Below, piece after piece: positions 2,964 to 54,228 of a DNA stretch of 64,000 nucleotides. The DNA comes from Methanosuratincolales archaeon. GTDB taxonomy: Archaea > Thermoproteota > Methanomethylicia > Methanomethylicales > Methanomethylicaceae. Location: NCBI GenBank assembly GCA_014361445.1, contig JACIVQ010000001.1, positions 10,174 through 74,173 on the forward strand, in the 5' to 3' direction. Made by a program: the position numbers and the translations under genes. Within the stretch, counting starts at the first letter, position 1. Each line of letters begins with the position of its first letter. Under the pieces are notes generated by a model. It saw nothing but the letters and a program-made list of their open reading frames with translations, searched no databases and was not told the origin of the DNA.

Positions 2964-2993
2964 ACCATACACCAAAAGCCAAGAGATTGGCAT

Positions 2994-3043: not shown

Positions 3044-3129
3044 AGGAAAATTTTGTCGGGCACTTAAATTCAATGGTAGAGGGATTAAAAATAAAGTTTG
3101 AGCAAGTGCTGCGATAATATTCGCTTATG

Positions 3130-4593: not shown

Positions 4594-4653
4594 AGATCAC
4601 GCCGCCAACTTCACCATTAATTTATATTTTAATGTTTTCATATCATTCATAGG

Positions 4654-6131: not shown

Positions 6132-6315
6132 ATGGCTTCAACGCTTTAATTTTGTGGCTTCTTGCTTAAAAACAAGACCTTTTTTTGGCTCTGTTTTATA
6201 AGAATAATAATTCAACTAATGATTAAAATTAATGATTTTGTAAAAATGACAATTTAAAAGAAAAATATAATAATCCCCATTTTGAACTCTATCGGTATTA
6301 ATTGGAGGGTTTTCG

Positions 6316-7290: not shown

Positions 7291-7586
7291 CTTTGGGCTC
7301 TGGTCTGATGTCACACTTCATCCTTTTTTGTCCGTAATACCAGCACTCATCATAGCCCAATTATCCTAACACTTATTTTTTTAATAAACTTGACGGACCG
7401 TTCAAAAGGTTTATTAAGATCCATAATAATAATTGGATGGACAATCCGTCCATATAGTGTCATCTCACCCACCAAATTTTTCTACTTTTTTGGGTCAGTA
7501 AGTAGGACAATTGAGTAGTTTAGGCTCTGACCACACTCCTGCCGATAAGGTTAAAACGGGCAATATTTTATAGATATAAAATACTG

Positions 7587-35507: not shown

Positions 35508-35553
35508 GTGATTAACAAGGAAGATCAGGGCTTATATTCCTAGTAGATGTTCT

Positions 35554-35576
35554 ATTTGTTAGAACGAAAGATCTAA
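35554..35576. repeat. 23-bp sequence atttgttagaacgaaagatctaa (copy 1 of a perfect direct repeat; contains inverted half-sites ttaga-N8-tctaa)
   Basis: Identical 23-mer at 53377-53399. Confidence 0.8.
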
Positions 35577-35730
35577 TACGTGTTCTATTACGCACTTTTT
35601 TAGCACCCGTCCCATACAGGTCACTGTTGAGAGAGGGGCGTCTGCCGATAAAAGCCTTTGCGCCCTCAAGGGATTCAGGGGACTCAAGGAACTCAGGGAG
35701 CGAATAATAGAGGTAAGTAAAAAGCATCTG

Positions 35731-36003
35731 TTGTTCGGCAGCCCATTGAGGTACTTCATCATTGCGTATGTAGCCTCTAAAAAAGAGGTCACATGGTCTC
35801 AATTGAAGGGGGCTATTGAGTTGTGGGCGGGACCGGTCAACCCAAATACGCTGAGCTTCCACCTCGGCGAGCTTATGGAAGGGGGCTTCATAGTCAAAAT
35901 AGAGATCGAGGGCCAGCCTAGGTACAGGGTCGCCGAGGGGAGCCTTAAGGGAGTGGAGGGGCTCCTCGATAAAGAGATCATTAAGGAAATGGAGGCTCTT
36001 TGA
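35731..36003 (+). CDS. small winged-helix transcriptional regulator
   Basis: 90 aa. wHTH-like ...LSFHLGELMEGGFIVKIEIEGQPRYRV.... Preferred over the overlapping minus-strand ORF. Confidence 0.45.
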   Translation: MFGSPLRYFIIAYVASKKEVTWSQLKGAIELWAGPVNPNTLSFHLGELMEGGFIVKIEIEGQPRYRVAEGSLKGVEGLLDKEIIKEMEAL

Positions 36004-36085
36004 GTATCTACTGGTTCATACACCAGCAAACCCCGTCATTAAAGCAGGAAGCCCACGGGCCTATAGTTTTGGCTTCTCTCAACAT

Positions 36086-36589
36086 TTAGAGATCTAAAGG
36101 ATAAACATCTTCGATCCTCTGGGAGAACGGTTTCTTCTTATGAATCATAATCTCCTTTGTTCTTATCAGGGGGTGAGTATAGTCTACCTCTGGGCGACTC
36201 ATTATTATCTCGTCGGCCAACCTCTCTAAGCTGTAGACGTCTTTCTCTTCGATTACTACGACCATATGATGGAATCCTGTACAGAGCCAGACGCTCTCGA
36301 CTTGCGGGTGTTTTAATAACTCCTCGGCCAACCTCTCTCTCGTCCCTGGCGGTACTCCTGCTTTAAGGTTGAAAGCTATATCTGAGACTTGCCTGCCAAG
36401 TTTGTAGTAGTTTATATTACATGTTGGGTCTATGATCTTCTCATCAATTAACCTATTTACTCTCGCTGCTACGGCTGGGACGCTCAGCCCAAGTCTATTG
36501 GAGATTTCACTATAGGGCGTCCTCGCATTGGCAATCAAAATTCTTATTATTTCTTTATCTATTTTGTCAACTAAGCTCTTTCTGCCCAT
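36086..36589 (-). CDS. lrp: Lrp/AsnC-family transcriptional regulator
   Basis: N-terminal HTH (IDKEIIRILIANARTPYSEISNRLGLSVPAVAARVNRL) plus a C-terminal RAM domain. Confidence 0.85.
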   Translation of the reverse strand: MGRKSLVDKIDKEIIRILIANARTPYSEISNRLGLSVPAVAARVNRLIDEKIIDPTCNINYYKLGRQVSDIAFNLKAGVPPGTRERLAEELLKHPQVESVWLCTGFHHMVVVIEEKDVYSLERLADEIIMSRPEVDYTHPLIRTKEIMIHKKKPFSQRIEDVYPLDL

Positions 36590-36671
36590 GCCCTATATAA
36601 TTCTCTCTCTACCTTAATAAGTTTAAGCGAAATGATTTATATAAACAAAAAAGGGGAAAAAAATAAGGTTG

Positions 36672-37943
36672 TTATAGGTAGCGGTTAAAGGGTTTTTCCT
36701 TTCCATCCCTTACAATTTTTATTTTTGCTGGTTCAGTTTTTATTATCACCCTTCCAGATTTGACTACGAGTAGCCTAGGCGCCATGGTCCTTATCGCTTC
36801 AAGTTCACTGAAAGCATCCATCACCACTAGATCCGCATCTTTCCCTTCTTCCACCCCGTACCTCTCGGATATACCTAAGGCTCTGGCCGGATTGTATGTT
36901 ATCAGGTTCAAACTATCTAAGAGTTCCCTGTAACCTGTCAATTGCCCAACATGTACGCCCATAAATAGAGCATGAAGCATATCGCCATTTCCCAGAGGAT
37001 ACCATGGGTCCATTATGCAGTCGTGCCCTAATGCGACATTGATGCCGTGTTGCAATAGCTCCTTAATTCGGGTTAAACCCCTCCTTTTCGGATAAGTATC
37101 AAACCTCCCTTGGAGGTGAATGTTTATCAGCGGATTTGCTACGATCGTTATATCTGCTTTTTTTAACAAACCAAAGAGCTTGAAGGCATATGCATTATTG
37201 TAGGAGTGCATGGCTGTGGTGTGCCCTGCGGTCACTTTCCCTTGATATCCCTCTCGAATAGTTTGGGCGGCGACGACCTCAAGAAACCTTGACTGCTCAT
37301 CGTCCGTTTCGTCAACATGACCATCGACTTTCTTTCCGTATTTTTTGGCAAGCTTGAATGCCAGCTCAACTGATCTCACGCCGTCTTCTCTTGTATATTC
37401 TATATGGGGTATTATTCCTACATTGTCAGCGCCTAACTCTAAAGCCCTTTCTAACAATTCTTGGTTGCCTGGATCTGTGAGGATGCCGTCCTGTGGGAAT
37501 GCCGTGACCTCTAGATCGATTATATCAGCACACTCTTTCTTAAGTTCTAATAATCCCTTGAGGGTTGAGAGGGTTGGCTCCGTCACGTCTGCATGAGTCC
37601 TAACCCTTGTAGTCCCATTGGAGGCTATAAGCTCAAGAGCCCTCATGGCTCTAGCCTTCATCTCGTCAATATTCAGTTTTTTCTTATACTCCCCCCAGAT
37701 GGCTATGCCTTCCAGAAGCGTTCCACTCTCATTGTATCTTGGAGTACCAAGTGTTAGTACAGAATCGAGATGTATGTGCATGTCTGTGAATGTTGGAAGA
37801 ACCAACCTACCCCCAGCATCAAACTCTTCATTCCCCCTTTCTTTGATCTCTTTTTTAATTGTTGTAATTTTGCCTTCGCTGACGCCTATGTCGACGGTTC
37901 CGTCCTTCCCCATCAGTTTTGCTCTCCTAATAATAAGGTCCAT
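36672..37943 (-). CDS. codA: cytosine deaminase (amidohydrolase)
   Basis: Near-collinear with E. coli CodA: HIHLD, RTHVDV, GHVDE.DDEQSRF, HTTAMHSYN, VANPLINIHLQGRFDTYPKRRG and GHDCIMDPWYPLG. Confidence 0.9.
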   Translation of the reverse strand: MDLIIRRAKLMGKDGTVDIGVSEGKITTIKKEIKERGNEEFDAGGRLVLPTFTDMHIHLDSVLTLGTPRYNESGTLLEGIAIWGEYKKKLNIDEMKARAMRALELIASNGTTRVRTHADVTEPTLSTLKGLLELKKECADIIDLEVTAFPQDGILTDPGNQELLERALELGADNVGIIPHIEYTREDGVRSVELAFKLAKKYGKKVDGHVDETDDEQSRFLEVVAAQTIREGYQGKVTAGHTTAMHSYNNAYAFKLFGLLKKADITIVANPLINIHLQGRFDTYPKRRGLTRIKELLQHGINVALGHDCIMDPWYPLGNGDMLHALFMGVHVGQLTGYRELLDSLNLITYNPARALGISERYGVEEGKDADLVVMDAFSELEAIRTMAPRLLVVKSGRVIIKTEPAKIKIVRDGKEKPFNRYL

Positions 37944-38042
37944 TTACTCACCTCTTCCTATATATTTTAAATAAACTATCATATAACCTTTAATTTTTTA
38001 GGCAACATATATATATTTCTTTTATTATTTAAGTAGAATTAG

Positions 38043-39479
38043 GTGCTTTGTATGAGTAGTTCAGGGATAAGCCCAGAACTTTTCCCTACCAAGCCTGAAC
38101 AGAGGATCGTCGGAACTGTCGGTTATACTCTTATGATACTCTCCATGACTATCACAACCTCCATATTCTTCTTGGGCTGGATCTCTCAAGTGCTCGGCCT
38201 CTCATTAGCCCAGACCATGGTTGCCGCTCTAATTGGCAATGGCGTTGTCGCGGCGGTCATGTATCTAAATGGTTATGTAGGCGTTAAAGAAGGCATCCCG
38301 TTTCCAATTCAACTGAGAACCGCCTTCGGAACGAAGGGATCAATCCTTCCCATGGTAGTGCGAATGATAGTCTCCCTCTTCTGGTATGGTATTGATGGTT
38401 TCATAGCAGCATGGGCAATGACTGAAATGGCTCTTATTGTGGCAGGTTGGCCAGCAGATAGAATAATAAGCGAGGGTCTGGCCTACACCCCCATAACCTT
38501 TGTCTTGTATTTGATAGCCGTAGCCGCCATAGGTACTGGGAAAATTAAGTCGATAAAATGGATCGATTCCATTGCCGGTCCTCTCCTGTTTATCTTCTTC
38601 GCCTGGTTTGTTATCTACATGACTGGGATACCCGAGTTCTCAGGGAAGGTTATACCCATATGGGAGGGCGGCGCCCCATGGTTCGGGTCAGAGTTCTTTT
38701 GGGCTACGGCTATTCAGACGGCATGGTGGGGTACTATCGCCCTAAACGTCTCAGACATCTGCCGCTACAACAAATCAGTAAAATCTTTGCCTGTCGGCCA
38801 CGTGGTAGGACTCATAATACCCCAAATAGTCGGCTCTGCAATAGGCTTCACTGCCACATACCTGGCTGGCGGGAACCTCAGCCCAATAGATATAATCGCA
38901 AAATATTCGCCGATGCCTGCTTTGGGGGCGCTCGGTTTATTCTTTGCCTTCTTGGCTACATCCACCACCAACCTTACAGGCGACATACCTGCAACTACAA
39001 ATGCAGTTATAAGAGTCTTCAGGCTTAGCTGGAACAAAGCGCTCATAATAGCTACAATCATCGCATTCTTCATAGGTCCATGGTGGTATGTCCAAAATTC
39101 CATAGGCATGGCGTACCAACTTCTCAACTTCAACTGGTACTACAGTATGTTCTTGGGTCCGATAGCCGGGGTGATGGTGGTTGACTACTGGGTTGTTAGG
39201 AAAAAGAGAATAATTGTTGAGGAATTATACAAGGAACAAGGTATCTACTATTATAGAGGCGGAGTTCTCTGGGCTGGCGTTGGCTCATTCATACTTGGAA
39301 TTGTAGGTGAATATATTGCAAGCCTCTTCCAAGGTGGTTTCTACTACGCCTTTGGGATTCCATTACCTGGACTAGAGCTTGCATGGTACTACGGTTTCAT
39401 CATATCAGGCGTAATTTACTACATATGGGCTACTGTGAATAAAAGTGAAGTTCTGGTGGAGAACAAGCTCCACCAATAA
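38043..39479 (+). CDS. NCS1-family nucleobase:cation symporter (cytosine/uracil/hydantoin permease-like)
   Basis: 478 aa, ~12 predicted TM helices, with size and topology typical of NCS1. Divergently arranged with codA. Confidence 0.65.
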   Translation: MLCMSSSGISPELFPTKPEQRIVGTVGYTLMILSMTITTSIFFLGWISQVLGLSLAQTMVAALIGNGVVAAVMYLNGYVGVKEGIPFPIQLRTAFGTKGSILPMVVRMIVSLFWYGIDGFIAAWAMTEMALIVAGWPADRIISEGLAYTPITFVLYLIAVAAIGTGKIKSIKWIDSIAGPLLFIFFAWFVIYMTGIPEFSGKVIPIWEGGAPWFGSEFFWATAIQTAWWGTIALNVSDICRYNKSVKSLPVGHVVGLIIPQIVGSAIGFTATYLAGGNLSPIDIIAKYSPMPALGALGLFFAFLATSTTNLTGDIPATTNAVIRVFRLSWNKALIIATIIAFFIGPWWYVQNSIGMAYQLLNFNWYYSMFLGPIAGVMVVDYWVVRKKRIIVEELYKEQGIYYYRGGVLWAGVGSFILGIVGEYIASLFQGGFYYAFGIPLPGLELAWYYGFIISGVIYYIWATVNKSEVLVENKLHQ

Positions 39480-40356
39480 TCTATTTTTTTATTTTGAGTG
39501 GTGAAAACAAAAATAAAATTAAAATACCACTCACGCAATTCATAACTAACAGTTTGACACTCTAGCTTCCACTTCTATCCCCAACCCCTCTCCTTTCCTA
39601 TTCCATTTCCACTCCTACTTCCACTCCTAATATGACCACGACTCTAATACAAATCACACTTAATTCAAATCATTATCTCATAGAGCGCTCACTCTTATTG
39701 TCACCATTTATCCTGTAACTTATACTCATAATCATACCTGCATTAGTGTCCATGCCAGCGTTTGCATAAATGTTTACCCTCGTCAAGGAACCTCCGCGTG
39801 AGGAAGAAAAGTAAGAGGGCGGCGGACATATATAGAAGGCCAGCGGGCTGTGAACCATCGCCTTGAAGGCGCGGAAGAGGAACAGTAGGGGATCATTATG
39901 AAGGCGCCGAGGGGGCTTACGTGTTCCCGAAGATCAGGGCGGAGAGAGTGGAGCGTCTCGTAATCGGCAATTTGAAAACGCGAATATCGAGGGTATGGGG
40001 AGCAAGAGTATCAGGAAGATCGCTGTGGCCATCCTCCCGCCCTCGAGGGGCATGTTCTGGTATAGGGGCAGGGTCGCCTCGGGGTATAGAGCGCCTATGG
40101 CGTATGTGATCGCGCGGTCTATGAACAGTGCCAAGAGGAACGTAATTCCGGAGCGCATGCCCCCAAACCTTCAACCAACCGTTCCGACCCGTAAGATCAC
40201 CCAAAGAGGTTCGTGGCTTTAGCCGCGAGGGGCTTCTACCGTGCCCATCCACTATATTTTTTCCATTCAATTTTATAAACTCGTCATATTATGAGAGTAG
40301 ATTGGAGGAGAAAATGAGGGGCACGAAACATAAGATCGATACAGGGGTGTGCCAGC

Positions 40357-40752
40357 GTGGGCATAATCTATGAGAACCTTAGAAAGGTAGGTTTTGGAGG
40401 GCATAGGTGGTGCGAGATTTACGAGTTTATTGACACGGGCTGCGCCGCTGGCTGCACTTTTATGGTAGAGATAACTTTGAAGTGGAAAGAGCCCATCACG
40501 GACAAGGAGAGGGCGGAAGAGATTAGATCTCTCAGAGAGGGAATAAGCGAGCTGGAGGGAAGGCTCGTCGATCTTAAGTCGATAGTTAAGCCCGACTTCA
40601 AAGCCCTTCAGAGAGCCGTATCCTCAACGAAGACCGGAACCCGCGAGCACGAAGAGGCCCTTCGAAAGCTTAAGGGGGCGCACAGGCGATGGGCGGAGCT
40701 CAAACGGATGATCCAAGAAAACCAGCAAATAAAAAACAGGTCGAGGGGATGA
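40357..40752 (+). CDS. hypothetical protein (possibly the N-terminal part of a frameshifted gene continuing in 40689-41222)
   Basis: 131 aa ORF. It overlaps the next ORF by 64 bp across an A6 run. Confidence 0.3.
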   Translation: MGIIYENLRKVGFGGHRWCEIYEFIDTGCAAGCTFMVEITLKWKEPITDKERAEEIRSLREGISELEGRLVDLKSIVKPDFKALQRAVSSTKTGTREHEEALRKLKGAHRRWAELKRMIQENQQIKNRSRG

Positions 40753-41222
40753 GGGCGAGGCTTAACATGCTTGAGGGGGGCTCGGAAGCCCTCAAAACGA
40801 GAGGCAAACATCTAATCACGAGGTGCTTCTTCTGGGAGGATGGGGAGGACGAGGAAGCCATTAATGATTTTGTGGAAAGGTTCATCAGCGATGTGGAATT
40901 CCGGCGGCAGAGCATCGAGGGCAACGCCGACTGGTGCCACATCAACAGGATCTACGAGGCGGCTGAGGAAGTGGTCTGGAGGTTCTACTCCAATCTCCCA
41001 CACTTCCTCGGATATACTTTAGGTGATAGGAAGACCGAAAAGGAACACAGGGAAGCCTACGCCAAATTCGAGATGTACTGCAAAAGTGTTTATAAGTACA
41101 TCAAACAGAACATAAACGCCTTAATGGGAAATCCGGATTACCAAGAAGCCCTCCTCTGTGGAAGGAATGGCCTTGAGCGATTCGTCAAAGAACACATCCT
41201 GCCAAAGGTCGAGAGAATGTGA
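40689..41222 (+). CDS. hypothetical protein
   Basis: 177 aa ORF with protein-like composition. No family recognised. Confidence 0.35.
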   Translation: MGGAQTDDPRKPANKKQVEGMRARLNMLEGGSEALKTRGKHLITRCFFWEDGEDEEAINDFVERFISDVEFRRQSIEGNADWCHINRIYEAAEEVVWRFYSNLPHFLGYTLGDRKTEKEHREAYAKFEMYCKSVYKYIKQNINALMGNPDYQEALLCGRNGLERFVKEHILPKVERM

Positions 41223-41320
41223 GCTACTCCATGACTCAGGCTTATAGCCGTGGGTTTTCCGCTAAAAATGGGAGAGAACGCAGCCACAACCGTAATAGGC
41301 TGATCAGAAAGGTTGGCTAT

Positions 41321-41578
41321 ATGAAATATACAAAGCAAGCGAAAACCAGAGCAGCTGAAAGGGGTATAACTGAGGACATGATTTTGGAGGCGATATTGCA
41401 ACCGTCCCAGACATATTATGACTTGAGCACTGGAGCAACAATAGCCTTCAAGAAGCTTAATGGAAAGCATCTTTTAGTAGCATACTCTAGAGAGGATAAG
41501 GAAATCAGGATTGTGACAACTTTTATAACATCAAATGCCGAAGAAATAATTGACAGAAAACCGAAGAGCAAAACATGA
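41321..41578 (+). CDS. DUF4258-family putative toxin
   Basis: MKYTKQAKTRAAERGITEDMILEAILQPSQ...GKHLLVAYSREDKEIRIVTTF matches the DUF4258 pattern (HA.ER..ERGI.....E.L......NG....V.Y.......I.VIT.Y). The ORF-track start at 41219 is probably too far upstream. Confidence 0.55.
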   Translation: MKYTKQAKTRAAERGITEDMILEAILQPSQTYYDLSTGATIAFKKLNGKHLLVAYSREDKEIRIVTTFITSNAEEIIDRKPKSKT

Positions 41579-41589
41579 GTGAGGATTAA

Positions 41590-41811
41590 GTGAAAGTGGA
41601 ATATGACAGAGAATCAGACATACTATACATAAAGTTCAAAGAGACGGAAATAGCAGACACCAAAATGTTAAGCGAAGACGCCTACATAGACCTGGACAAA
41701 GATGGAAACCTCGTTGGCATAGAAATATGGAAAGCCTCCCAAAACGCCATACTCCCAATATCTAAGGACATAGCCGAAAAACTAAAACTGATTTTGGAAA
41801 GCCCAGCCTAA
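41590..41811 (+). CDS. DUF2283-family protein (partner of DUF4258; putative antitoxin)
   Basis: MKVEYDRESDILYIKF...DLDKDGNLVGIEIW is the DUF2283 signature. 73 aa. Confidence 0.6.
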   Translation: MKVEYDRESDILYIKFKETEIADTKMLSEDAYIDLDKDGNLVGIEIWKASQNAILPISKDIAEKLKLILESPA

Positions 41812-41985
41812 AGCAAAATAAAAAGCTTTCCTAGCTCTGGTTAAATATTTTCGAAATTTTAACTTAATACCGGTGTATTTATCCCCATCTTAGCTCATAT
41901 TTCATGTAAGTCAATGCTCAGCAAGTAATGAAGAGCCTTCTCTTAAGAGTGGACTGATCTATCTCCAGCCCAGGGGCGGCGCACA

Positions 41986-42768
41986 TCAACCATAATTTTT
42001 TAAGTTTCTACCGCTCGGCACTCCCAGGTTTTTTCTAAAACCCTCTGGTTCACATATCCCTGGTGTTCGAAATAAATTGTCTAATCTCTTGGCTTCTTCG
42101 ATAAATATTCTTCTCGCATCGTCCGAGAACTTGTTTCTCCTCTGGATCTCCTCAATAGCCTGGATGTTCCCCTCTATCAGCCTCAAAACCGCTAATGTCC
42201 TCTTAAAACTGTATGTAGTGAATGGGCTCTCCTTTTCCTCGAAACCGAGCCTTTTCAGGGCACCTTTCAAGGATAAATATGCGAAGTGGTGAAGTACTTG
42301 AAAGGTGGCCATGGCCCTGTCATGCTCCTCTGCGCTACATTCAACCACACTCATCCCACATGTCAAAAGCAGTTCTCTAAACTTATCCATCCAGCACCTA
42401 ACACGTACAGGAACTATTACAACGTTCTTAATGCCCACCCTATGCGATGCAAAGAGGGGGTGGATGCTGACATACTCCAACCGTTCGGGCAGGAGACGTG
42501 TGACCTCCTCCACAATACCACACTTAACAGAGGAGATGTCCACAAAGAGGGCCCCATCTCTCATATGTTGAGATGCCTCCCCTGCGAGTTCTGGGAGCGA
42601 TGTGGGCGGAACCGCTGCTATCAGGATATCGCTCTGTAGCATACATATATCAATGTCAGCAACCCTTACCCCTACGATTTTTGCAACCCTAGCGGCCCGC
42701 CTAAATGACCTGCCACAGAGGGTCACTTCTGTAGACTTCTTCAATAGGCGGGCCATGCACCTGCCCAT
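41986..42768 (-). CDS. tyrA: prephenate dehydrogenase
   Basis: TyrA catalytic core (VAAVPP...HPLFAS...). The Rossmann motif KVGIVGTGRMG lies in frame upstream of the first ATG (see findings), so the true start probably lies between 42769 and 42843. Confidence 0.75.
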   Translation of the reverse strand: MGRCMARLLKKSTEVTLCGRSFRRAARVAKIVGVRVADIDICMLQSDILIAAVPPTSLPELAGEASQHMRDGALFVDISSVKCGIVEEVTRLLPERLEYVSIHPLFASHRVGIKNVVIVPVRVRCWMDKFRELLLTCGMSVVECSAEEHDRAMATFQVLHHFAYLSLKGALKRLGFEEKESPFTTYSFKRTLAVLRLIEGNIQAIEEIQRRNKFSDDARRIFIEEAKRLDNLFRTPGICEPEGFRKNLGVPSGRNLKNYG

Positions 42769-42782
42769 CCTCCCTGTCCCGA

Positions 42783-43853
42783 CTATGCCAACCTTGAGTA
42801 GCTCCCTAGAACCTTCAATGATTTTGATTTCCTCCTTGCATTTTCTATAACCCTAAGGCGACTTTCTCCACCGATACCACCCTCAAACTCCATGTAAAAG
42901 AAGTACTCCCACGGTCTCCCCATAATCGGTCTCGAAAGGATCATGGTGATATTTATCCCCGCCTCGGCGAAATCTGAAAGAACCCGAGAGAGGGCACCTG
43001 GTACATTATCAAGAAAGAATATTACTGCAGTCTTCTCCCCTTCAGCCTTTGATCTCTCCCGGCTCAGGATCGCGAATCTTGTATAGTTTTTGGGCGAGTC
43101 CTCAATATTCATGGCCATAATCCTTAACCCATTCAACTCCGCGGCCGTCTTACTCCCAATGGCAGCCCCTTTTGTATCCCTTGATACAAGCTCTGCTGCC
43201 CTTGCCGTAGATTCGGTAACAACGACCTCTGCATTGCTTAGATACCTTGATATATAACCCTCGCACTGTGCTAAGGCTTGTGGGTGTGAATAGAGGCGCT
43301 CCACATCACATAAGGAGGAGATCCTAGGGTTCACCATCAAGTTCTGGTTTATCCTGAGCAGTACCTCGCCCACTATGTATAATGGATACTCCATTAGGCA
43401 GTCCAGTGTTTCATTCACAGAACCCTCAATGGAGTTCTCGAGTGGAACAACGCCCAAATCCGCCTCCTCATTGTCGACGCTGCGGAAGATTTCCATGATC
43501 CTTCTGCATGGGGCGTACCTATTAGAAGATCCGAGAATTGTTGCAGCCTCATGGGAAAAACTCCCCTCAGGTCCCAAGTAGGCCACAGAGAGCGACCTCT
43601 GGGCATTTCTACACATGGAGATTATCTCCCTGAAGACCCTCTCCACACCCTTTGCAGGTGCGAGGGCTGCGGCCGCATGGGCGCTTTCTACAACCTCCCT
43701 CTCGCGCCCTGGGTCGAAGACTGGCATATCCGCTTCAGATTTTATTATGGCGATTTCCTTGCAGAGCTTTATCCTTTCGTCGATGAGCCTGACGATCTCT
43801 CTATCGATCTCTTCGATCTTTTTTCTAACTTCCCTTAGACCCATCCTCCTCAC
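42783..43853 (-). CDS. pheA: bifunctional chorismate mutase / prephenate dehydratase
   Basis: N-terminal AroQ CM helix (LREVRKKIEEIDREIVRLIDERIKLCKEIAIIK), a PDT domain (VAYLGPEGSFSHEAA...), a TRF motif and a C-terminal ACT domain. Confidence 0.9.
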   Translation of the reverse strand: MRRMGLREVRKKIEEIDREIVRLIDERIKLCKEIAIIKSEADMPVFDPGREREVVESAHAAAALAPAKGVERVFREIISMCRNAQRSLSVAYLGPEGSFSHEAATILGSSNRYAPCRRIMEIFRSVDNEEADLGVVPLENSIEGSVNETLDCLMEYPLYIVGEVLLRINQNLMVNPRISSLCDVERLYSHPQALAQCEGYISRYLSNAEVVVTESTARAAELVSRDTKGAAIGSKTAAELNGLRIMAMNIEDSPKNYTRFAILSRERSKAEGEKTAVIFFLDNVPGALSRVLSDFAEAGINITMILSRPIMGRPWEYFFYMEFEGGIGGESRLRVIENARRKSKSLKVLGSYSRLA

Positions 43854-44940: not shown

Positions 44941-46208
44941 TAGAAGACCTCCACCGTTGCGCCAAGGGTCCTTAGATCATTAAAGAAAGAGGGGTAGCTC
45001 TTTGAGACGCACTCAGCATTTTGGATTATAGTCTCCCCTTGAGCTACGAGCGAGGCCACGGCCGAGGCCATGGCTATCCTATGGTCGTTACTCGGGTCTA
45101 TCACCGTCGCTCTTAGGGGGGTGCCACCCTGAATTACCATAAAGTCTTCATAAGCCTTGACCTCAACACCAAAAGCCCTCAGCATATTAGTAGTTGTCAA
45201 TACCCTGTCACTCTCCTTAAACCTAAGCCTCCTAATCCCTTTTATAATTGTGGTACCGCTTGCTTGGGATCCTAAGACCGCAGTTATTGGTACTAAATCC
45301 GGAACATCGCTCATATCCAAAACTAAACCATAGAGTTTAGATCTCTTAGCCCTCCAAGTCCTACCATGCATATAAACCTCGCCCCCCATCTGGCTGAAGA
45401 TCTCTATGACCTTCCTGTCTCCCTGTGTAGAGTTTGGCATCAATCCTTCGACGCCAACATTCCCAGCGAGGAGGCCGGCAGCGAGTAGGATAGCCCCTAA
45501 GGAGTAGTCGCCCTCCACCCTGAAATTACATGGGGTCAATCTTTGACCGCCTTTTATGTGGAAGACTCTATCTTCTCTAACGATAGTGGCACCGAAAGCC
45601 CTGAGCACCTCCATAGTCATATCAACATAATATTTCGAGGCTATTGGCGTTGTAATATTTAGGACCGTGTCTTTTTTTGCCTTTGTAGATGCTATCAGGA
45701 GTGCTGATATAAACTGTGAACTTATGTCCCCACGGAGATTCACCTCTCCACCCTCTATACCTCCCCCCATAACCACTACTGGAGGACAGCCGTCCCCTCT
45801 GGTGGAGTAGCAGGAGACACCCAACGAGTTGAGACACCTTAATAGTTCCCCCATAGGCCGCCTCCTTAAGGACCGGTCTCCCGTCAATACCGTTATACCA
45901 GGGGCGAGCGCTGATACCGCCGTGAAGATCCTAATCGCCGTAGCAGATCCCTTACAGTCTATGATGTCCTCAGGTGTCCTGAGTGACCCACCCTCTATAA
46001 CCCATTTGTCATAGCCCTCTTCTACACCAGCCCCGAGCATCTTGGCGGCATTAAGCGCCGCCCTTGCATCCTCACAATGAGAGGGATCGATTATCTCTGT
46101 CCTACCATCTGCAATGAGCGCGCATGCCACCGCCCTCTGCGTATAACTCTTCGAGGGCGGCGCTCTTACGCTACCGCTGACCTCATTCCCCTTAATCTTT
46201 ACATTCAT
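44940..46208 (-). CDS. aroA: 3-phosphoshikimate 1-carboxyvinyltransferase (EPSP synthase)
   Basis: PPSKSYTQRA, LGAG... and the full two-domain EPSPS length (422 aa). Confidence 0.95.
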   Translation of the reverse strand: MNVKIKGNEVSGSVRAPPSKSYTQRAVACALIADGRTEIIDPSHCEDARAALNAAKMLGAGVEEGYDKWVIEGGSLRTPEDIIDCKGSATAIRIFTAVSALAPGITVLTGDRSLRRRPMGELLRCLNSLGVSCYSTRGDGCPPVVVMGGGIEGGEVNLRGDISSQFISALLIASTKAKKDTVLNITTPIASKYYVDMTMEVLRAFGATIVREDRVFHIKGGQRLTPCNFRVEGDYSLGAILLAAGLLAGNVGVEGLMPNSTQGDRKVIEIFSQMGGEVYMHGRTWRAKRSKLYGLVLDMSDVPDLVPITAVLGSQASGTTIIKGIRRLRFKESDRVLTTTNMLRAFGVEVKAYEDFMVIQGGTPLRATVIDPSNDHRIAMASAVASLVAQGETIIQNAECVSKSYPSFFNDLRTLGATVEVF

Positions 46209-47065
46209 AAATCCTCACCCTTGCGGGCCTTCCTGCAACTAGTCTTGGCTTTAATAATCCTTGCCCCGAAACGCTTCCAGCCCTCGACTATGGGATCCTC
46301 ATCCCCCTCCCTACATACAGCACAGACGGCTGGACCTTTACCGCAGAGACCTGCTGATATCGCCCCCCTCTCCATGGCCGTTATGATGGGCGATGGGTCA
46401 TATCCAAAGGTATGTGACATAATTAGGCCATTTAGGATCATTGCTTGCCAGACCCTCCCACCCATCGCTTCTTGAAAAGCCACCTCGGCAAGCCTCCTCA
46501 CAGACCTTACAGTTTCCTGTCCCACACTCCCTGAGTAACGCCTCTCCTCGGGAACGAGAAAGAGGACAGTCAAGGGCTCGACCTCAACACTCTTTAAGAT
46601 CCTCATCCGGCAATTATCAGTGATCTGAAGGCCGCCAAAGTAACTGGCTGATGCGTCATCGAAGGCGCCCGTGAGTGTCACCCTTGCTCTTATTGAGGCC
46701 TCGACCCCTAGCTTTACTATCTCGAGATCCTCCAGGTCCTCTCCCAAGGCGTCTAGTGTAGCCAACACTATGGCGTTTGACGCCGCGCTGGAGCTCTTCA
46801 TGCCCCTTGCTATTGGGATGTTGCTCCACGTCTTTATGGAGCCCCCCTTCCTAAGTCCAAACCGCTCCATTACTACCTTAAATGACTCCTTTGCCAACTC
46901 CTTACTCTCCCCACTATCACCATTTATCTCGACCGAGATTCCTACATGATCGTTGAGCTCGACCTCAGCGACCGTCCAAAGATCCACACCTAATGATGCG
47001 CCAAGTCCCGATGGCATAGCATTTACAACTGTTGTGGCTCCATAGGCCACCCCTACCCCTTTCAT
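46205..47065 (-). CDS. aroK: shikimate kinase, archaeal GHMP-kinase type
   Basis: GHMP motif PIARGMKSSSAASNA. Positioned within the aro operon. 286 aa. Confidence 0.8.
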   Translation of the reverse strand: MKGVGVAYGATTVVNAMPSGLGASLGVDLWTVAEVELNDHVGISVEINGDSGESKELAKESFKVVMERFGLRKGGSIKTWSNIPIARGMKSSSAASNAIVLATLDALGEDLEDLEIVKLGVEASIRARVTLTGAFDDASASYFGGLQITDNCRMRILKSVEVEPLTVLFLVPEERRYSGSVGQETVRSVRRLAEVAFQEAMGGRVWQAMILNGLIMSHTFGYDPSPIITAMERGAISAGLCGKGPAVCAVCREGDEDPIVEGWKRFGARIIKAKTSCRKARKGEDL

Positions 47066-47901
47066 CGGGTATCACCCCTTACGGCCCTGCGCATCGTCTC
47101 TAAGGGCGCCGTCCGCCCAGTCCATAAAGTAAACGCTATAGCCCCTTGATGGACTAGCGGCTCTAGACCATCTATCACCTTGCAGCCCTTTGCCTTGGCC
47201 AACCGCAAAAGTTTCGTCTCGATGGGATCATAAACTAGATCCATCACTATGACGCCCACATCCAACAGGTGGTCTGGTACAGGGCTCTCATCTATTCTTG
47301 GTCTCATCCCCAAAGGCGTGGCATTTATAATTAGATCTACTTTCCTTATTCCACTGAGATCGACCAGAGAGAGACCTTCTGCATAAGCCCCCCCTCTGAG
47401 GAGGTCTGCAAGAGATTTAGACTTGGAGGGATCCCTCCCAGCTATGAGGATCTTAGATGGCTTATTAGTAGATGCCAACTCAAATGCAACTCCTCTTGCC
47501 GCTCCTCCATAGCCCACTATGATCACGCTCTTCCCAGAGATCTCTACGCCGCAATACTCAAGGGCCCCAATAACCCCTTTCCCATCAGTATTATAGCCAA
47601 CCAATCTTCCTCCGTTGTTCAGAATGGTATTCACAGAGCCCACAAGTTCCGCCGTCCCTTCCAATTCATCGAGGTATTTTATGATCTCCGTCTTGTGGGG
47701 CATAGTCACATTACACCCAAGGAAGCCTATAGCCCTCAGACCATCAACAGTAGTTTTGAGGTCCTCCCTCTTCACCCTGAAGGCAAGGTACGCGCAATCC
47801 TCCCCCAACTCTGAGAAGGCAGCAGTAAACATAGCCGGGCTCCTAGAGTGTTCTACTGGGTCGCCTATCAAACAGCAGAGGCGCGTCCTACCAGTGGTCA
47901 A
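47062..47901 (-). CDS. aroE: shikimate 5-dehydrogenase
   Basis: GDPVEHSRSP, NVTMPHK and the GGAARG NADP motif. Confidence 0.9.
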   Translation of the reverse strand: MTTGRTRLCCLIGDPVEHSRSPAMFTAAFSELGEDCAYLAFRVKREDLKTTVDGLRAIGFLGCNVTMPHKTEIIKYLDELEGTAELVGSVNTILNNGGRLVGYNTDGKGVIGALEYCGVEISGKSVIIVGYGGAARGVAFELASTNKPSKILIAGRDPSKSKSLADLLRGGAYAEGLSLVDLSGIRKVDLIINATPLGMRPRIDESPVPDHLLDVGVIVMDLVYDPIETKLLRLAKAKGCKVIDGLEPLVHQGAIAFTLWTGRTAPLETMRRAVRGDTR

Positions 47902-48556
47902 GGGCCATCACCTCCCGTAGGGACTTAAGTGTCTCAACATCTACCTGCCCAGGTGCCGTCTCCTTCCCTCTCTTAAGAGAGGCATATGTCCACTCAGCCC
48001 CAAATATGGGGCAGAGCACACGGGATATGATCCCTAACTCCCCGTAACAGAATATAATGCGCCGGTACCCCTTCAATGAGCTGCATGCCTGGAGGGCGAC
48101 CAGATTTTCATCATGGGTATGTGCGGGCATCACCGCCTTATAGATGACCTTGTTCCCATATTCTTTGATCATTGAAGAGATCTCCTCTTGTGTAAGGGGG
48201 CGGTTGACATGCCACGAGATGATGATCTCAGTTCTGCCGAGCATGCTCTCCATACACTCTCTAATGAGAGATCCCCCCATCTCGGCACCGAGATCCACAT
48301 AATCTGCATACTCGGATGCCATTAGGAGTAATTCCGCTCTCTCTCTGAGCCCACCATCAAACCTTCCAAATGTAGAGTTTGGCATTATAGTGGCTACTTT
48401 GGGGATATCTATTACATCTAAAGCCTTGAATATGCGCCTGAGCTTGTCTCCATCTAATCTCTTAATGTAATCTAATCGAACCTCTATGAGATCGGCCCCC
48501 TTAATCCTTGCCTCCTCTGCGCTACGGAGCAGATCCTTCTCGCATACCTCGGCCAA
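47888..48556 (-). CDS. aroD: 3-dehydroquinate dehydratase, type I
   Basis: IEVRLD... and a (beta/alpha)8 type-I DHQase pattern with the conserved lysine region. 222 aa. Confidence 0.8.
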   Translation of the reverse strand: MAEVCEKDLLRSAEEARIKGADLIEVRLDYIKRLDGDKLRRIFKALDVIDIPKVATIMPNSTFGRFDGGLRERAELLLMASEYADYVDLGAEMGGSLIRECMESMLGRTEIIISWHVNRPLTQEEISSMIKEYGNKVIYKAVMPAHTHDENLVALQACSSLKGYRRIIFCYGELGIISRVLCPIFGAEWTYASLKRGKETAPGQVDVETLKSLREVMALDHW

Positions 48557-48575
48557 GGAGACACAGATCTTGTAC

Positions 48576-49664
48576 CTAATTGCACATAACCTCCTCTAAA
48601 GATGAAGTTATGATCTCTTCGGGAGGGTCTGTTATAACCGTACCTTCTCCGATTTTTGTTGGAACAGCGAACCTTAACTTACCGGACCTGACCTTCTTGT
48701 CATGGTATATTGAGGTGAGTACGCCCTCAACTGATCCCCTCCGCGCCCTCTTTGAAAGTCCGTAGGCCGATATTAGCGACTCCATCCTATGGAGATCCCT
48801 ATGGCTAAGTAATCCTAGTCTATTGGAGATCCTGCCCTCCACCACCATACCCACCCCTACTGCTTCTCCATGGCTATAGTAAGAATAACTTGTAGCCGAC
48901 TCTAGCGCATGTCCCACCGTGTGACCAAAATTTAACAACATCCTCGCATTTTTATCGAACTCGTCTATGGCTACTACATCTGCTTTAATCTTAATAGCAA
49001 TTGAAACGATCCTCTCTATAAGATCGCTTTGGAGCCCTTTAATATCATCCTTATATTGTTCGAGGATGGAGAAGAGAGAGCTGTTAAGGATGGCACCATA
49101 CTTTATAAGTTCAGCGATCCCGTTCCTGATCTCTCTTGGTGGGAGCGTTTTTAAAAGACCTACGTCCGTAACGACGAGCTTTGGTTGGTAGAATGTTCCG
49201 ATGAGGTTCTTCGCGAGGGGGTGGTTTATGGCAACCTTCCCACCGATGCTACTGTCTACTTGTGCGAGGAGGGTCGTCGGGATGTGGGCTAGCTTTGTTC
49301 CTCTCATGTATGTGGCAGCGACAAAACCAGCCAGATCACCTACACAGCCCCCTCCGAATGAGGCTATCACCGCTTCCCTCCCTACATTATGCTCGAGTAG
49401 GGCATTTACCACCTCTAAGTAGCTCTCGAAGGATTTTGCCCCCTCCCCATCTGGGACTTCTATAATAAAATAGTCGAGCCCTTCATTGGAGAGGGAGTCT
49501 TCTACGATTCTTCCGTAAAGTCCCCTAACGGGAGGGACTGTGAGGACCACTACTTTTTCCCCTTCGCTTACCTCTCTAAGATACCTCCCCACACTACTAA
49601 GTAGCCCATTACCTATGTGGACTGAGTAACTCCGTCTGCCTAAGTTTACGGTTATAGTCTCCAC
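48576..49664 (-). CDS. aroB: 3-dehydroquinate synthase
   Basis: GGGCVGDLAGFVAATYMRG..IPTTLLAQVDSSIGGKVAINHP. Confidence 0.9.
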   Translation of the reverse strand: METITVNLGRRSYSVHIGNGLLSSVGRYLREVSEGEKVVVLTVPPVRGLYGRIVEDSLSNEGLDYFIIEVPDGEGAKSFESYLEVVNALLEHNVGREAVIASFGGGCVGDLAGFVAATYMRGTKLAHIPTTLLAQVDSSIGGKVAINHPLAKNLIGTFYQPKLVVTDVGLLKTLPPREIRNGIAELIKYGAILNSSLFSILEQYKDDIKGLQSDLIERIVSIAIKIKADVVAIDEFDKNARMLLNFGHTVGHALESATSYSYYSHGEAVGVGMVVEGRISNRLGLLSHRDLHRMESLISAYGLSKRARRGSVEGVLTSIYHDKKVRSGKLRFAVPTKIGEGTVITDPPEEIITSSLEEVMCN

Positions 49665-50645
49665 TCAAATTCGCCTCCCCACGGCCCTTGTCAAGACCGC
49701 GAGCTCGTCCATGAGTCTATGGAAGGCTTTTAGTGTGAGGGACTGGGGACCATCGCTGAGGGCAGCCTCAGGCCTTGGATGTACCTCTATTAAGAGCCCA
49801 TCTGCCCCAGCTGCTATTGCGGCTTTGGAGGCGGCAGGTACAAGCTCGCTCCTCCCTGTCGCATGGCTTGGGTCAGCGACTACTGGTAGGTGGGTCAATA
49901 GCTTGGTCAGAGCTATACCTGACACATCCAGGACATTCCTGGTGGCATCCTCAAAAGTCCTTATCCCCCGCTCACAGAGTATTACATTCCAATTCCCCTC
50001 TAAGAGTATGTACTCTGCTGCTAAGAGCCACTCCTCGATTTTGGCCGACGGGCCTCTCTTCAGTAGTACAGGCTTCATAGATCTTCCGACCGCCCTGAGG
50101 AGTTCGAAGTTCTGCATGTTCCTCGCCCCTATCTGAAGCGCATCTGCATACTTGGAGACCAGATTGACCTGTTCCGGGGAGAGTACCTCCGTGACTACAG
50201 GGAGACCTACTTCACCAGAGACCTCCCTCAGAATCTTCAGTCCCTCCTCCCCAAGCCCCTGAAATGAGTAAGGGGACGTCCTAGGCTTGAACGCCCCCCC
50301 TCTGAGCGCCCTCGCACCAGCATTCTTTACATCCCTTGCTACTTCCCTCATCATCTCTAACCCTTCAACAGCACAAGGTCCTGCGCAGACTACAACTTCT
50401 TCCCCTCCGAACTCTACATCCTTGATCTTTACACAAGTATTATCTTTGGAATACTCCCTACTCACGAGCTTGAATTCGCTCTGGATCTCCTTTGAAGAGA
50501 TTATCTCGATTTGAGAGAGCAAACCCTCAGGAACCCTCCCCTTTACTATATATACAACCTTCCCATCACGTTCGACCTTCCAAATCCTCCCAGCCAACCC
50601 CCTCTCAAGAATCTGAGATGGCTCCCTAAGAGTTAAGATCATCAT
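49665..50645 (-). CDS. aroF: 3-deoxy-7-phosphoheptulonate (DAHP) synthase, type I-beta with N-terminal regulatory domain
   Basis: [21 protein letters not shown] and LPVVTEV. 326 aa. Confidence 0.9.
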
Positions 50646-51553
50646 CTCCTCCTCCGAATAACCCCCTTGATAACTGATCTTATCTTTTCGGCTGTAAGAC
50701 CAAACTTCTCTAATAGTTCGCGGTGTGTTCCGGATTCGCCGAAAGTGTCGCCGATACCAATCCTTGCCACTGGGACTGGGTACTCTAGAGAGAGAAGTTC
50801 CGCCACAGCGCTCCCTAGACCACCAATTACGCTATGCTCCTCAACACATACTACTGCCCCACAGGACTTTGCAGCTGAGATGACTGCCTCCTTGTCCAGC
50901 GGCTTAATTGTCGAGACGTGTACAACCCTCACACTTGTATCTGTGCATCTTGCCGCTTCGAGAGCCTCTGCGGTTATTGAGCCAGTAGAGAAGAGGGCAA
51001 CATCGCTACCGTCCATTAAAGTGGTTGCCTTACCAATCCTAAATACCCCATCACGATCGAAGATCCTCACATCTTCGTCCCTCCCTATCCTTAGGTAGAC
51101 CGGCCCCTTCATTTCTATAATAGCCTCCACCGCCTCCTTGACCTCTTGAGGGTCACCTGGCGCGACCACGGTCATGTTTGGTAAGACGCGCATCAACGCA
51201 AGGTCTTCCAAGGCTTGGTGGGACGCTCCATCATCAGCGGCTGTCAGCCCAGCGTGTGTGCCCACGAGTTTCACATTAAGGTTCGCTCTGGAGATCGTAT
51301 TCCTTATCTGCTCCCATGCCCTCATTAGAAAAGAGGAGAAGAGGGTCACGAGAGGGACCCTCCCTGTGAGTGCCAGTCCAGCCGCGACCCCTACTATATC
51401 TTGCTCGCTGATTCCAAGATTGAATAATCGGTTTGGGTACCTGTCTTTAAATTTGTATACGTATGTAGGGTTGCCAACGTCCCCAGTCAGGACGATGAGT
51501 TCTTCGTATAATTCTCCGAGCCTTACCAAGGACTCTCCGAACGCTCTGCGCAC
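50642..51553 (-). CDS. tkt: transketolase, C-terminal (pyrimidine-binding) subunit
   Basis: Split-transketolase pyrimidine-binding subunit pattern, with an internal Gly-rich segment. 303 aa. Confidence 0.9.
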
Positions 51554-52420
51554 CTAGAGACCTCCCCCGTACGCCTCTAACTCCTTTAATGCCGCCAAGT
51601 ACTGCTCATCATTCAAGCGGATCTTGTGCCCCCCATTTGTATCCTCAATAAATGGGACGCCATGCCCCTTCTTAGTGTAGGCTATTATAGCAACAGGTCC
51701 TTCGGAGTGTTCTGCGTAGTCCAAAACCTCCACAATCTTCTGTACATCATGCCCATTTACTGTGTAAACCTCCCAACCAAAACTTTCAATCTTTGCCTTC
51801 AATGGTACCTTTTTCTTAACCTCCTCCGTTCTTCCGTCTAATTGCCACCCATTTCGGTCAATAATTAGAACCAAGTTTGAGAGTTTCAGATGCGCAGCCG
51901 TCATCATAGCCTCCCAGACCTGCCCTTCGTCACACTCGCCGTCGCCCATCAAAACATAGACCCTCGATCTACTGCCATTCATCCTGATACCCAACGCCAT
52001 GCCCACCCCAATGGACAAGCCCTGTCCTAACGAGCCAGACGGAGCCTCCACGCCAGGAACTCTAAGATCCGGATGCCCCTGGAGGCGGGACCCAAGTTTT
52101 TTGAAGGTCCTTAACTCCTCCCTTTGGATGTAGCCCATTTCCGCCAGGACCGCATAAAGTGCCAGTGCCGCATGCCCCTTGCTCAGGACGAACCGATCTC
52201 TATCTTTCCACAATGGCTCATAGGGGGTGTGCCGCATTTTCAAGAAGTAGAGTGTTGCGATTATTTCAAGGCATGAAAGCGATGAACCGAGGTGCGCATT
52301 TTCATTATGGGCCGTCTCGAGTACCAGTCGACGAATAGATCTTATCTTCTCTTTGAGTTTTTGAACCTCTATTATATGCCGTAGTTCGCTAGTTTCCACT
52401 GTGCTACCCATTACAGTCAC
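51554..52420 (-). CDS. tkt: transketolase, N-terminal (TPP-binding) subunit
   Basis: GHPDLRVPGVEAPSGSLGQGLSIGVGMAL, a GDGE TPP motif and SNLVLIIDRN. Confidence 0.9.
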   Translation of the reverse strand: MTVMGSTVETSELRHIIEVQKLKEKIRSIRRLVLETAHNENAHLGSSLSCLEIIATLYFLKMRHTPYEPLWKDRDRFVLSKGHAALALYAVLAEMGYIQREELRTFKKLGSRLQGHPDLRVPGVEAPSGSLGQGLSIGVGMALGIRMNGSRSRVYVLMGDGECDEGQVWEAMMTAAHLKLSNLVLIIDRNGWQLDGRTEEVKKKVPLKAKIESFGWEVYTVNGHDVQKIVEVLDYAEHSEGPVAIIAYTKKGHGVPFIEDTNGGHKIRLNDEQYLAALKELEAYGGGL

Positions 52421-52707
52421 CCTTTGCTGTTAAAATTCGCGGAGGTCGATCTGAAGTCAAAGACTCAAAGAGTGTCCAAAGGCAAAGAATGGTTACGGTT
52501 ATAGATATTGGAATTGGCTCACTTTGCCCACCTTTTTTATACTCCTAGAATCTTGATAGTATTTAAGTATTCTCGACAAAATTTTTTGACTAGCAAAAGC
52601 GGCAACACCAAAGGCATACAACCAGCAGGGTCCAAAATCAGAATCCTAGACGAGCCTCCAATTGCATATATCATTAGCACAAATGATTCCCGATATTATG
52701 ACTGCCT

Positions 52708-53297
52708 CTATTCACCGCCCAGGAAGGTCGAGGAGCTCGCCAAATACAAACCCTTTATCGGCGTTTTGAAGTATGGCCTTCTTACCCCAACCGACTGATC
52801 GAAGGAGTAGAGGGCGCCCTCTGGCATCGAAGTATATCTCTCGAATGTTTTGGGTGTTGCCGCGTCCTTGATGTAAAGCGACGGGCAGCCCGTCACAGAC
52901 AGGTAGAGCATGTAGTCGTAGTCCCCCGCTCGCATACGCCTTCTGGAAGACCCCCTTCCCACTCACGGCGTCCGGAGGGAACATGAACCAGCCCGTACTG
53001 GACGAGCTTCCTTATTGTCAGTTTGAAGTCAACCTTGGTCAGCTCCTTGTAGGGCTGACTGTTGGCCCATGCCACGACTCGCTCTATCTCCGCCCTGGTG
53101 GTAGTGCTCGGGTCGAAGGGGCATGCATTCATAATGGTGCAGACGTGGGTCACGTACTTGATGGTCCCCACGTCCGATATCCCCATGGCCCTCAGGTGTT
53201 CTATGAACGATAGCAGGAACTGCGCGTTCGGGAGGGAGGCTAGGCGCCTCTTGACATACTCCATCCTCTTCCTGCAGTCTTGCATGTCCTCACTCAC
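52708..53297 (-). pseudogene. tyrosine-recombinase (integrase) remnant, frameshifted and truncated
   Basis: The 52893-53297 frame encodes a SAM-like N-terminal domain (AQFLLSFIEHLRAMGISDVGTIKYVTHVCTIMNACPFDP...TRAEIERVVAWAN). The overlapping 52708-52962 frame continues with an integrase box-I-like segment RAGDYDYMLYLSVTGCPS, lacking the catalytic Arg, and then terminates. Confidence 0.45.
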
Positions 53298-53376
53298 CCC
53301 TGCTCTTCTGAAGCGGGGCGGATTTTAAAAGGCTGGATGGATGTACAAGAGAATCTGTATTGTACTCGCAACCTAC

Positions 53377-53399
53377 ATTTGTTAGAACGAAAGATCTAA
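53377..53399. repeat. 23-bp sequence atttgttagaacgaaagatctaa (copy 2 of the perfect direct repeat)
   Basis: Identical to 35554-35576. Lies 80 bp upstream of the integrase-remnant start. Confidence 0.8.
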
Positions 53400-53462
53400 A
53401 AAATTGATTTGAGAACTTACAAAAACCTTTGGTGTGATCTGAATAAACAGTACCTCAACTGC

Positions 53463-54128: not shown

Positions 54129-54228
54129 TTAAGAGAATTATTGTATTTCGATTTTTCTAGAAAGATCGAATCGGTCTCCGCCTTAAGAGGGCTTATAATC
54201 AGCCGAGGACGTACTCTCTCAGAGGACT

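Follow-up and report, generated by a model that had tools for sequence, protein, structure and literature searches.

We analysed a 64,000-nucleotide stretch of contig JACIVQ010000001.1 from a Methanosuratincolales archaeon (hereafter the window) and found that two identical 23-bp direct repeats enclose a 17.8-kb block of DNA that is missing from the corresponding place in related genomes. The block carries a cytosine-salvage module, which includes a cytosine deaminase gene (codA), and an operon for aromatic amino acids (aro). We consider the two repeats to be the left and right attachment sites (attL and attR) of an integrated element, or genomic island, and put the probability of this reading at roughly 0.87. 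An earlier reading of the same DNA, made from the sequence alone (the sequence-only reading), had raised attL/attR as an alternative to a pair of operators. The alternative is now strongly supported: the repeats are exact, relatives have empty sites whose breakpoints are exact as well, and the N-terminal remnant of an integrase lies in the canonical position next to one repeat. The island is decayed. It has the structure of an integrated element, and the marks of current activity, namely an integrase catalytic domain and a free phage-type attachment site (attP) or a second copy, were not found.

A duplicated core and the empty site in relatives

The repeat, ATTTGTTAGAACGAAAGATCTAA, occurs on the plus strand of the window at 35554-35576 (the attL core) and at 53377-53399 (the attR core), with 23/23 identity and no mismatches. 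A scripted search returned no third copy at up to 6 substitutions on either strand of the window; degenerate internal copies, which would be a sign of tandem elements, were likewise absent within 6 mismatches. The 23-mer was matched in 0 of 100 dinucleotide-preserving shuffles, so that no copy is expected by chance. Each copy contains the dyad TTAGA-N8-TCTAA, and the pattern TTAGA-N7-9-TCTAA is present in the window at these two sites only. Identity between the copies ends sharply at both edges, the right copy sharing the 23 bp and nothing more. The GTG (35507) and ATG (35498) starts of the minus-strand SIMPL gene are 47 and 56 bp away from the left copy. The right copy lies 80 bp from the GTG start (53297) of a minus-strand open reading frame (ORF) of 134 codons at 52893-53297, and 64 bp downstream of the stop of an ArsR-type gene at 53463-54128.

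These measurements agree with what the sequence-only reading had described: a perfect 23-bp direct repeat 17.8 kb apart (there are exactly two copies, on the same strand), inverted half-sites TTAGA-N8-TCTAA in each copy, and a position 50-80 bp upstream of a minus-strand gene start. It further placed small regulator genes beside both copies. The gene at 53463-54128 encodes an ArsR-type helix-turn-helix (HTH) protein, and the ORF at 35731-36003 has only a sub-threshold match to HTH_20 (E = 2e-4).

The site was then located in other genomes. A scan of GTDB, at one genome per species and with the 18-nt core TTAGAACGAAAGATCTAA as the query, returned two genomes only, with one match each: the Candidatus Methanomethylicota metagenome-assembled genome (MAG) WYZ-LMO10 (L002) and a MAG labelled Nitrososphaerota (L001). 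The same core gave no match in the viral collection and matched six contigs in the metagenome collection, four of which come from relatives (L003, L005, L006 and L007). The other two metagenome matches (L004 and L008) were rejected as chance, as they fall inside bacterial genes with products that end in DLSF at the stop codon. On all six related contigs (L001-L003 and L005-L007) the ArsR-type gene lies directly upstream of the SIMPL gene, with a single 23-mer there, that is, the site is empty.

BLASTN alignments to these contigs break exactly at the edges of the repeat. Homology of the left flank extends up to window position 35576 and homology of the right flank begins at 53377; the corresponding alignments in L002 cover 1-1227 and 1205-7684, and their overlap in the relatives is the 23-mer only. 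The empty chromosomal site (attB) in L002 reads CCTAGCAGATGTTCT-core-AAAAATAGATCT, and the two junctions in the window read CCTAGTAGATGTTCT-core-TACGTGTTCTAT at attL and CGCAACCTAC-core-AAAATTGATTTG at attR. From the empty sites and the breakpoints at the repeat edges it follows that 35577-53376 (17,800 bp) is an insertion bounded by a duplicated core, which is the signature of conservative site-specific integration. A comparison with related genomes, which the sequence-only reading had named as a check, therefore has a clear outcome, with the 35.5-53.4 kb segment absent and the repeat present in a single copy.

Both flanks consist of core chromosome. To the left are genes for an ABC transporter, a CARDB protein and the SIMPL/DUF541 protein (34767-35507, minus strand; Pfam PF04402, E = 2e-46), the last with 92-93% amino-acid identity to the sister species. 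To the right are the ArsR-type gene (minus strand; Pfam HTH_5/HTH_20), whose product has a C-terminal membrane domain and is 86-88% identical to that of the sister species, and genes for RadA, PEP synthase and carboxylase subunits.

The window derives from a metagenome-assembled contig, and the same picture might arise from a chimera joined at a short shared sequence. We regard an artefact of this kind as scarcely credible. The 23-bp repeat is shorter than typical final assembly k-mers, and the continuity of the island interior is reproduced in independent assemblies. Run SRR11866717 yielded an 18.5-kb Logan contig that matches window 36166-54704, attR included, at 100% identity; a Logan contig from run SRR11866725 covers window 49777-54648 and has the attR junction at 100% identity; and a second MAG (GCA_038801675.1) matches the island interior at 36541-42114 with 99.7% identity. 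No independent assembly spanning attL was found. Target duplication by a transposon or casposon was also considered and is unlikely, as the island ends have no terminal inverted repeat (the best local score, 14, is below the shuffle mean of 15.3); Pfam scans found neither a transposase nor Cas1.

Insertion and precise loss give indistinguishable end states, and the occupied state could in that respect be the ancestral one, with the relatives having lost 17.8 kb by deletion or excision between 23-bp repeats that were already there. The aro genes form a housekeeping pathway with host-like composition, as such a history would have it. Nucleotide identity between the window and the sister species is 87-90%, between the window and L001 72-76%, and between L002 and L001 72-79%; L002, L005 and L007 are mutually about 99% identical, and the six contigs represent two lineages, the sister species, to which L002 belongs, and L001. 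Given the grouping ((window, sister), L001), a single insertion is more parsimonious than two identical precise deletions, one in each lineage. Ancestral occupancy would moreover leave the origin of the repeats to be explained, and integration is what the remnant of an integrase next to one of them points to. The protein database also holds no close orthologue of the island transketolase or codA from the sister species, which is well sampled by long JGI contigs. Loss of an ancestral block is thus an improbable account of the empty sites, and we favour integration.

The integrase remnant and the proposed history of the island

The ORF next to attR preserves the N-terminal (SAM-like, core-binding) domain of a tyrosine integrase at 52974-53297 on the minus strand, after which it runs out of register to 52893. 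Searches of the 134-residue translation against Pfam (E up to 10), against the PDB with phmmer and against a word-indexed protein set returned nothing beyond a self-match (79 amino acids, annotated as a hypothetical protein of a Candidatus Methanomethyliales MAG). An exhaustive phmmer search with residues 1-108 recovered 72 proteins at E values down to 7e-27, among them full-length proteins of 370-420 amino acids. Ten of the longer matches were scanned, and in 10/10 the Pfam domain Phage_integrase lies downstream of the matched N-terminal region (in some only below the curated cutoff), with a C-terminal zinc ribbon in three. The full-length homologue P0136 matches PHROG integrase families. The label of integrase remnant that the sequence-only reading had given to this ORF, which the Pfam, PDB and word-indexed searches left without support, was thereby confirmed.

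The remnant can be aligned with the family through the motif RKLVQYG (at about residue 102), where the alignment stops; the catalytic domain is absent. The translations contain no catalytic-domain frame downstream of the remnant, and an intact domain with the R-H-R-Y residues was not found. At this point the remnant is abutted by a frameshifted pseudogene on the minus strand at 52708-52962, which goes on in another frame as far as about 52640. It is what is left of the C-terminal part of a FAD-dependent desaturase or oxidoreductase of the CrtI/CrtD family (match to NCBIfam CrtD at E = 1e-4, over profile positions 417-471 of 492). The contact between the two fragments indicates that an internal deletion or rearrangement destroyed the integrase.

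The genes of the closest homologues, P0124 (L013/L014) and P0122 (L015), start 60-70 bp downstream of a tRNA gene. This is the same layout and orientation as in the window: an att site, a short spacer, and an integrase gene (int) that reads into the element. The tRNA gene directly upstream of the homologue on L015 (about 245-365) has an apparent intron and was not called by ARAGORN. Many of the N-domain homologues among P0122-P0135 are short (79-215 amino acids), some of them on short contigs, and P0122 is internally truncated; decayed copies of this integrase lineage may be common.

From these features we infer the structure of attP and the position of the crossover. The element, in circular form, would have carried an attP in which the 23-bp core had the start of int 80 bp away on one side and, about 155 bp away on the other, a small ORF that putatively encodes a winged HTH (wHTH) protein. 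This ORF (35731-36003, plus strand) is now the first gene inside attL; apart from its match to HTH_20, which is below the cutoff, it has only a weak match to a Csa3-like wHTH (E = 5e-4). Before integration, in the circle, it and int would have pointed away from each other on either side of attP. Recombination would have taken place between attP and the chromosomal attB, which lies between the gene for the ArsR-type membrane regulator and the SIMPL gene. Conservative recombination by the element's tyrosine integrase would have placed the core at both junctions and kept the block upstream of SIMPL intact at attL, with strand exchange most likely occurring in the spacer of TTAGA-ACGAAAGA-TCTAA. 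A later internal deletion would have removed the catalytic domain of the integrase and fused its N-terminal stump to the desaturase fragment. The island would since have been fixed, with its cytosine-salvage module, toxin-antitoxin-like pair and aro operon intact.

A weak 9-bp tandem, CTCAAGGAA, is repeated 3.9 times with 76% matches at 35665-35699, in the interval from the attL core to the wHTH ORF. Its units could be arm-type integrase or regulator sites of the former attP, or the tandem could be due to chance; the only other candidate arm-type repeats in the reconstructed attP are trivial 7-mers.

The fragment beside an att site and the archaeal tyrosine recombinase recall the SSV-type suicidal elements of Sulfolobales and Thermococcales. 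In that type attP lies inside the int ORF, so that Int(N) and Int(C) end up at opposite ends of the element and Int(N) reads outward. The island differs in all of these respects: its core is outside the int ORF, 80 bp before the start codon, the N-terminal fragment points into the island, and int was shortened by an internal deletion. No integrase match was found among the ORFs inside attL, where Int(C) would be expected in an SSV-type split.

Several points weigh against integration as the origin of the island. The six empty sites represent only two independent lineages. The integrase is a stump only, so that its tie to this att site is positional. Exact-core scans of viral sequences, metagenomes and GTDB genomes found no free attP and no second occupied site, and no movement of this element has ever been observed; a scan of viral sequences could not be seeded from the integrase alignment, whose members are too divergent. 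Composition is weak evidence, as the aro segment is host-like (GC 50.3%, tetranucleotide r = 0.81; flank chunks have r = 0.78-0.89) and mild deviation is confined to the left 6.4 kb (GC 45.7%, r = 0.72). The island is also a mosaic, in which the codA module and the aro operon differ in their nearest relatives and in their contexts elsewhere, and some of the content may have entered after integration.

The attachment site

The left copy of the repeat forms part of a longer conserved block of the host. This block of 36 nt (35541-35576, minus strand) consists of TAGYAGATGTTCT plus the 23-mer, and 35 of its 36 positions are identical even in L001, in which the rest of the surrounding intergenic DNA is unalignable. 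The block adjoins a TATA-like box at 35531-35538, which precedes the SIMPL start codons by about 28-37 nt, and within the block are two overlapping dyads, GTTCTA-N5-TAGAAC and TTAGA-N8-TCTAA. It probably has a regulatory role in the host, and a part of it is used as attB. A candidate for the protein that binds the block is the adjacent ArsR-type regulator, whose gene lies directly upstream of the SIMPL gene in the empty-site genomes. The dyad TTAGA-ACGAAAGA-TCTAA lies wholly within the 23 bp of identity, and its arms are likely to be core-type binding sites that flank the overlap region. Integration regenerated the full 36-nt block at attL, in the same way as elements that target tRNA genes regenerate them. 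The window contains no tRNA gene, and no Rfam family was found in the window or at attL, from which we conclude that attB is not a tRNA gene or a known RNA gene.

The dyad and the HTH regulator genes nearby are also what would be expected if a dimeric wHTH regulator had both copies as its operators, the site having evolved or been retained in front of two minus-strand genes and the duplication being regulatory. The host copy may indeed be regulatory, as it belongs to a block that is conserved across lineages upstream of the SIMPL TATA-like box. As the cause of the duplication this account is largely refuted, and we judge it very unlikely. Relatives have a single copy and lack the intervening 17.8 kb, with breaks exactly at the repeat edges; the conserved block runs 13 nt further left at the left copy only; and the gene that the right copy would regulate is a dead integrase stump. 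Each of the two related GTDB genomes has the exact core once, the related DNA of the metagenome scan has it at no other place, and the 64 kb of the window hold no third copy within 6 mismatches; these scans give no sign of a multi-copy regulon. The operator proposal of the sequence-only reading therefore fails for the pair, given that the right copy would precede the integrase remnant only because attP adjoined int. A weaker form of it survives: a single-site operator for the SIMPL gene is plausible because the 36-nt block is conserved beside the TATA-like box.

Another account of the site is that it is the chromosomal Xer/dif site, and that the island integrated at dif with the help of the host Xer system or in the manner of integrative mobile elements exploiting Xer (IMEX). 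Some features agree with this: Xer/dif sites and those used by IMEX are dyad-symmetric with a central region of 6-8 bp, are present in a single copy and are conserved among relatives, and the site described here is likewise single-copy and conserved in the related genomes. The attB of the sister species can be read as an 11-6-11 structure, ATTTGTTAGAA-CGAAAG-ATCTAAAAAAT, in which 9/11 arm positions are complementary, and its left arm matches the left arm of Pyrococcus abyssi dif at 8/11 positions (dif sequence from PMC2958812). Against this, the right arm is not kept in L001, where complementarity falls to 7/11, and the conserved block is asymmetric, extending leftward. The similarity to characterised archaeal dif is weak (13/22 arm positions match P. 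abyssi dif), the site shows no skew switch when the island is ignored, and an integrase remnant that belongs to the element itself stands in the canonical place. We consider integration at dif highly improbable.

A review of archaeal tyrosine recombinases published in 2021 poses the question of whether att sites outside tRNA genes carry dyad symmetry (PMC8371274). The intergenic, non-tRNA attB described here does.

Cargo and comparison with known elements

The largest part of the cargo is an intact 11-gene aromatic amino-acid operon on the minus strand (41986-52420), identified with Pfam and by tblastn, gene by gene, against the annotated operons of L009-L012. The genes encode, in order, transketolase N, transketolase C, DAHP synthase, DHQ synthase, DHQ dehydratase, shikimate dehydrogenase, a GHMP-type shikimate kinase, EPSP synthase, chorismate synthase, a CM-PDT-ACT protein and prephenate dehydrogenase, and all are full length relative to their homologues. 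The best identity in the database is 76% at the amino-acid level for transketolase N and 51-73% for the other aro enzymes, to be compared with 82-99% between the flank proteins and those of the sister species. None of the contexts of transketolase homologues can be assigned to the sister species, and each is in a different neighbourhood. The lack of orthologues at about 90% identity suggests, as far as database sequences can tell, that the sister species does not have this block elsewhere in its genome.

Four other Methanomethylicia lineages each have the 11-gene operon among different neighbours. In a comparison of the window with L009, L010/L011, L012 and L020-L025 the neighbourhood likewise differs in every lineage, which suggests that the operon moves as a unit within the Methanomethylicia. 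About 80 nt upstream of the operon, alignment reveals a conserved motif of about 37 nt, AAGGTGGnnAAAGTGAGCCAATTCCAATATCTATAA (52500-52536, minus strand), that is nearly invariant in five Methanomethylicia lineages despite their differing neighbours (also at about 9806-9866 in L009, and in L010, L012 and L020). This motif is probably a promoter plus a regulator site that travels with the aro cassette.

The different neighbourhood of the operon in each lineage and the lack of close orthologues in the well-sampled sister species underlie the view that aro came as cargo. We somewhat favour the view that the operon was on the element when it integrated, and lean to a similar degree towards a single event that would have delivered all of the cargo. 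The wider proposal, that an integrative element brought the whole aro operon together with its own promoter motif and so moved a core pathway between Methanomethylicia lineages, is put forward tentatively, and we think it rather less probable than its opposite. If aro did arrive as cargo, site-specific integration would in this natural case have transferred a core anabolic pathway on the scale of a whole operon, after which the integrase was lost and the island became fixed, and the recipient would have gained aromatic prototrophy or undergone xenologous replacement.

The cytosine-salvage module (36086-39504; Pfam and NCBIfam) lies at the other end of the island. It comprises an Lrp/AsnC regulator gene (36086-36589, minus strand; Pfam), codA (36672-37943, minus strand; Pfam, and NCBIfam with 526 bits against a cutoff of 483) and a gene for an NCS1 permease (38043-39479, plus strand; Pfam). 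The best non-self match of codA is 88% identical at the amino-acid level and is found on an archaeal Logan contig from run SRR27170999 (L019) that is only 78% identical at the nucleotide level. The same Lrp-codA-NCS1 unit occupies 1095-4491 of that contig, where its neighbours are a DJ-1/PfpI gene at one end and an RHH/ParE toxin-antitoxin pair at the other. The module itself is portable.

Bacterial metabolic genomic islands with a tyrosine integrase, for example those linked to tRNA genes, have the order att, int, cargo operons, att, and their integrase decays after fixation. The island in the window differs from them in its archaeal host, its non-tRNA target and a core anabolic pathway as cargo. 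The closest known kind is the cryptic archaeal element with a non-suicidal (lambda/pNOB8-like, 'type II') tyrosine integrase, as found for example in Thaumarchaeota (PMC8371274). As in such elements, the direct repeats are short and perfect, int lies beside one att site and reads inward, and the cargo is cellular and metabolic and not viral or conjugative. Att identities of archaeal integrated elements range from 8 to 243 bp, within which the 23 bp found here fall, and integration into intergenic DNA, though on record, is uncommon (Badel et al. 2021, PMC8371274). The points of difference are the Methanomethylicia host, an integrase lineage in which several members carry a C-terminal zinc ribbon, the reduction of the integrase to its N-domain, and cargo that includes all 11 genes of an aro operon. 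Prophage PsiM100 of Methanothermobacter wolfeii and other elements with an intergenic attB (PMC8371274) resemble the island in having an AT-rich attB and intact adjacent genes. Unlike PsiM100, the island has no viral genes, and its attB is dyad-symmetric and overlaps a conserved promoter-proximal block. The kind of element is thus ordinary, and the cargo is unusual.

A search of the literature returned no description of integrated or mobile elements for the Methanomethylicia (Verstraetearchaeota), and the island provides a clean case from this group in which attB, attL and attR are all visible. In annotations, accessory DNA is the appropriate label for the 35.6-53.4 kb block, and ORF 52893-53297 should be entered as an integrase pseudogene.

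The list of contents given by the sequence-only reading (codA, the NCS1 permease, a noncoding patch, a toxin-antitoxin-like pair and the whole aro operon) was correct. Scans with Pfam and other family collections found no viral, conjugative, replication or transposase genes in the island, and the only match in PHROGs was the integrase family. Downstream of the NCS1 gene, on the plus strand, is an ORF-poor, C/T-rich patch followed by two overlapping ORFs (39480-41222 in total), without family matches. Its ORF-poor part, 39480-40356, starts with a C/T-rich low-complexity run, in which TTCCACTCCTAC is repeated 1.9 times at 39607-39629, and gave no family or Rfam match; what separates the NCS1 gene from the two ORFs here has probably decayed. 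These ORFs, 40357-40752 and 40689-41222, overlap by 64 nt in different frames and are both called as genes in independent assemblies. Neither has an informative match in Pfam, PHROGs, PADLOC or NCBIfam, and a single-sequence AlphaFold model of the 177-residue product of 40689-41222 is all-helical at low confidence (pLDDT 57). The two ORFs may be one frameshifted gene. They are followed at 41219-41811, on the plus strand, by a DUF4258/DUF2283 gene pair (Pfam) that resembles a toxin-antitoxin system.

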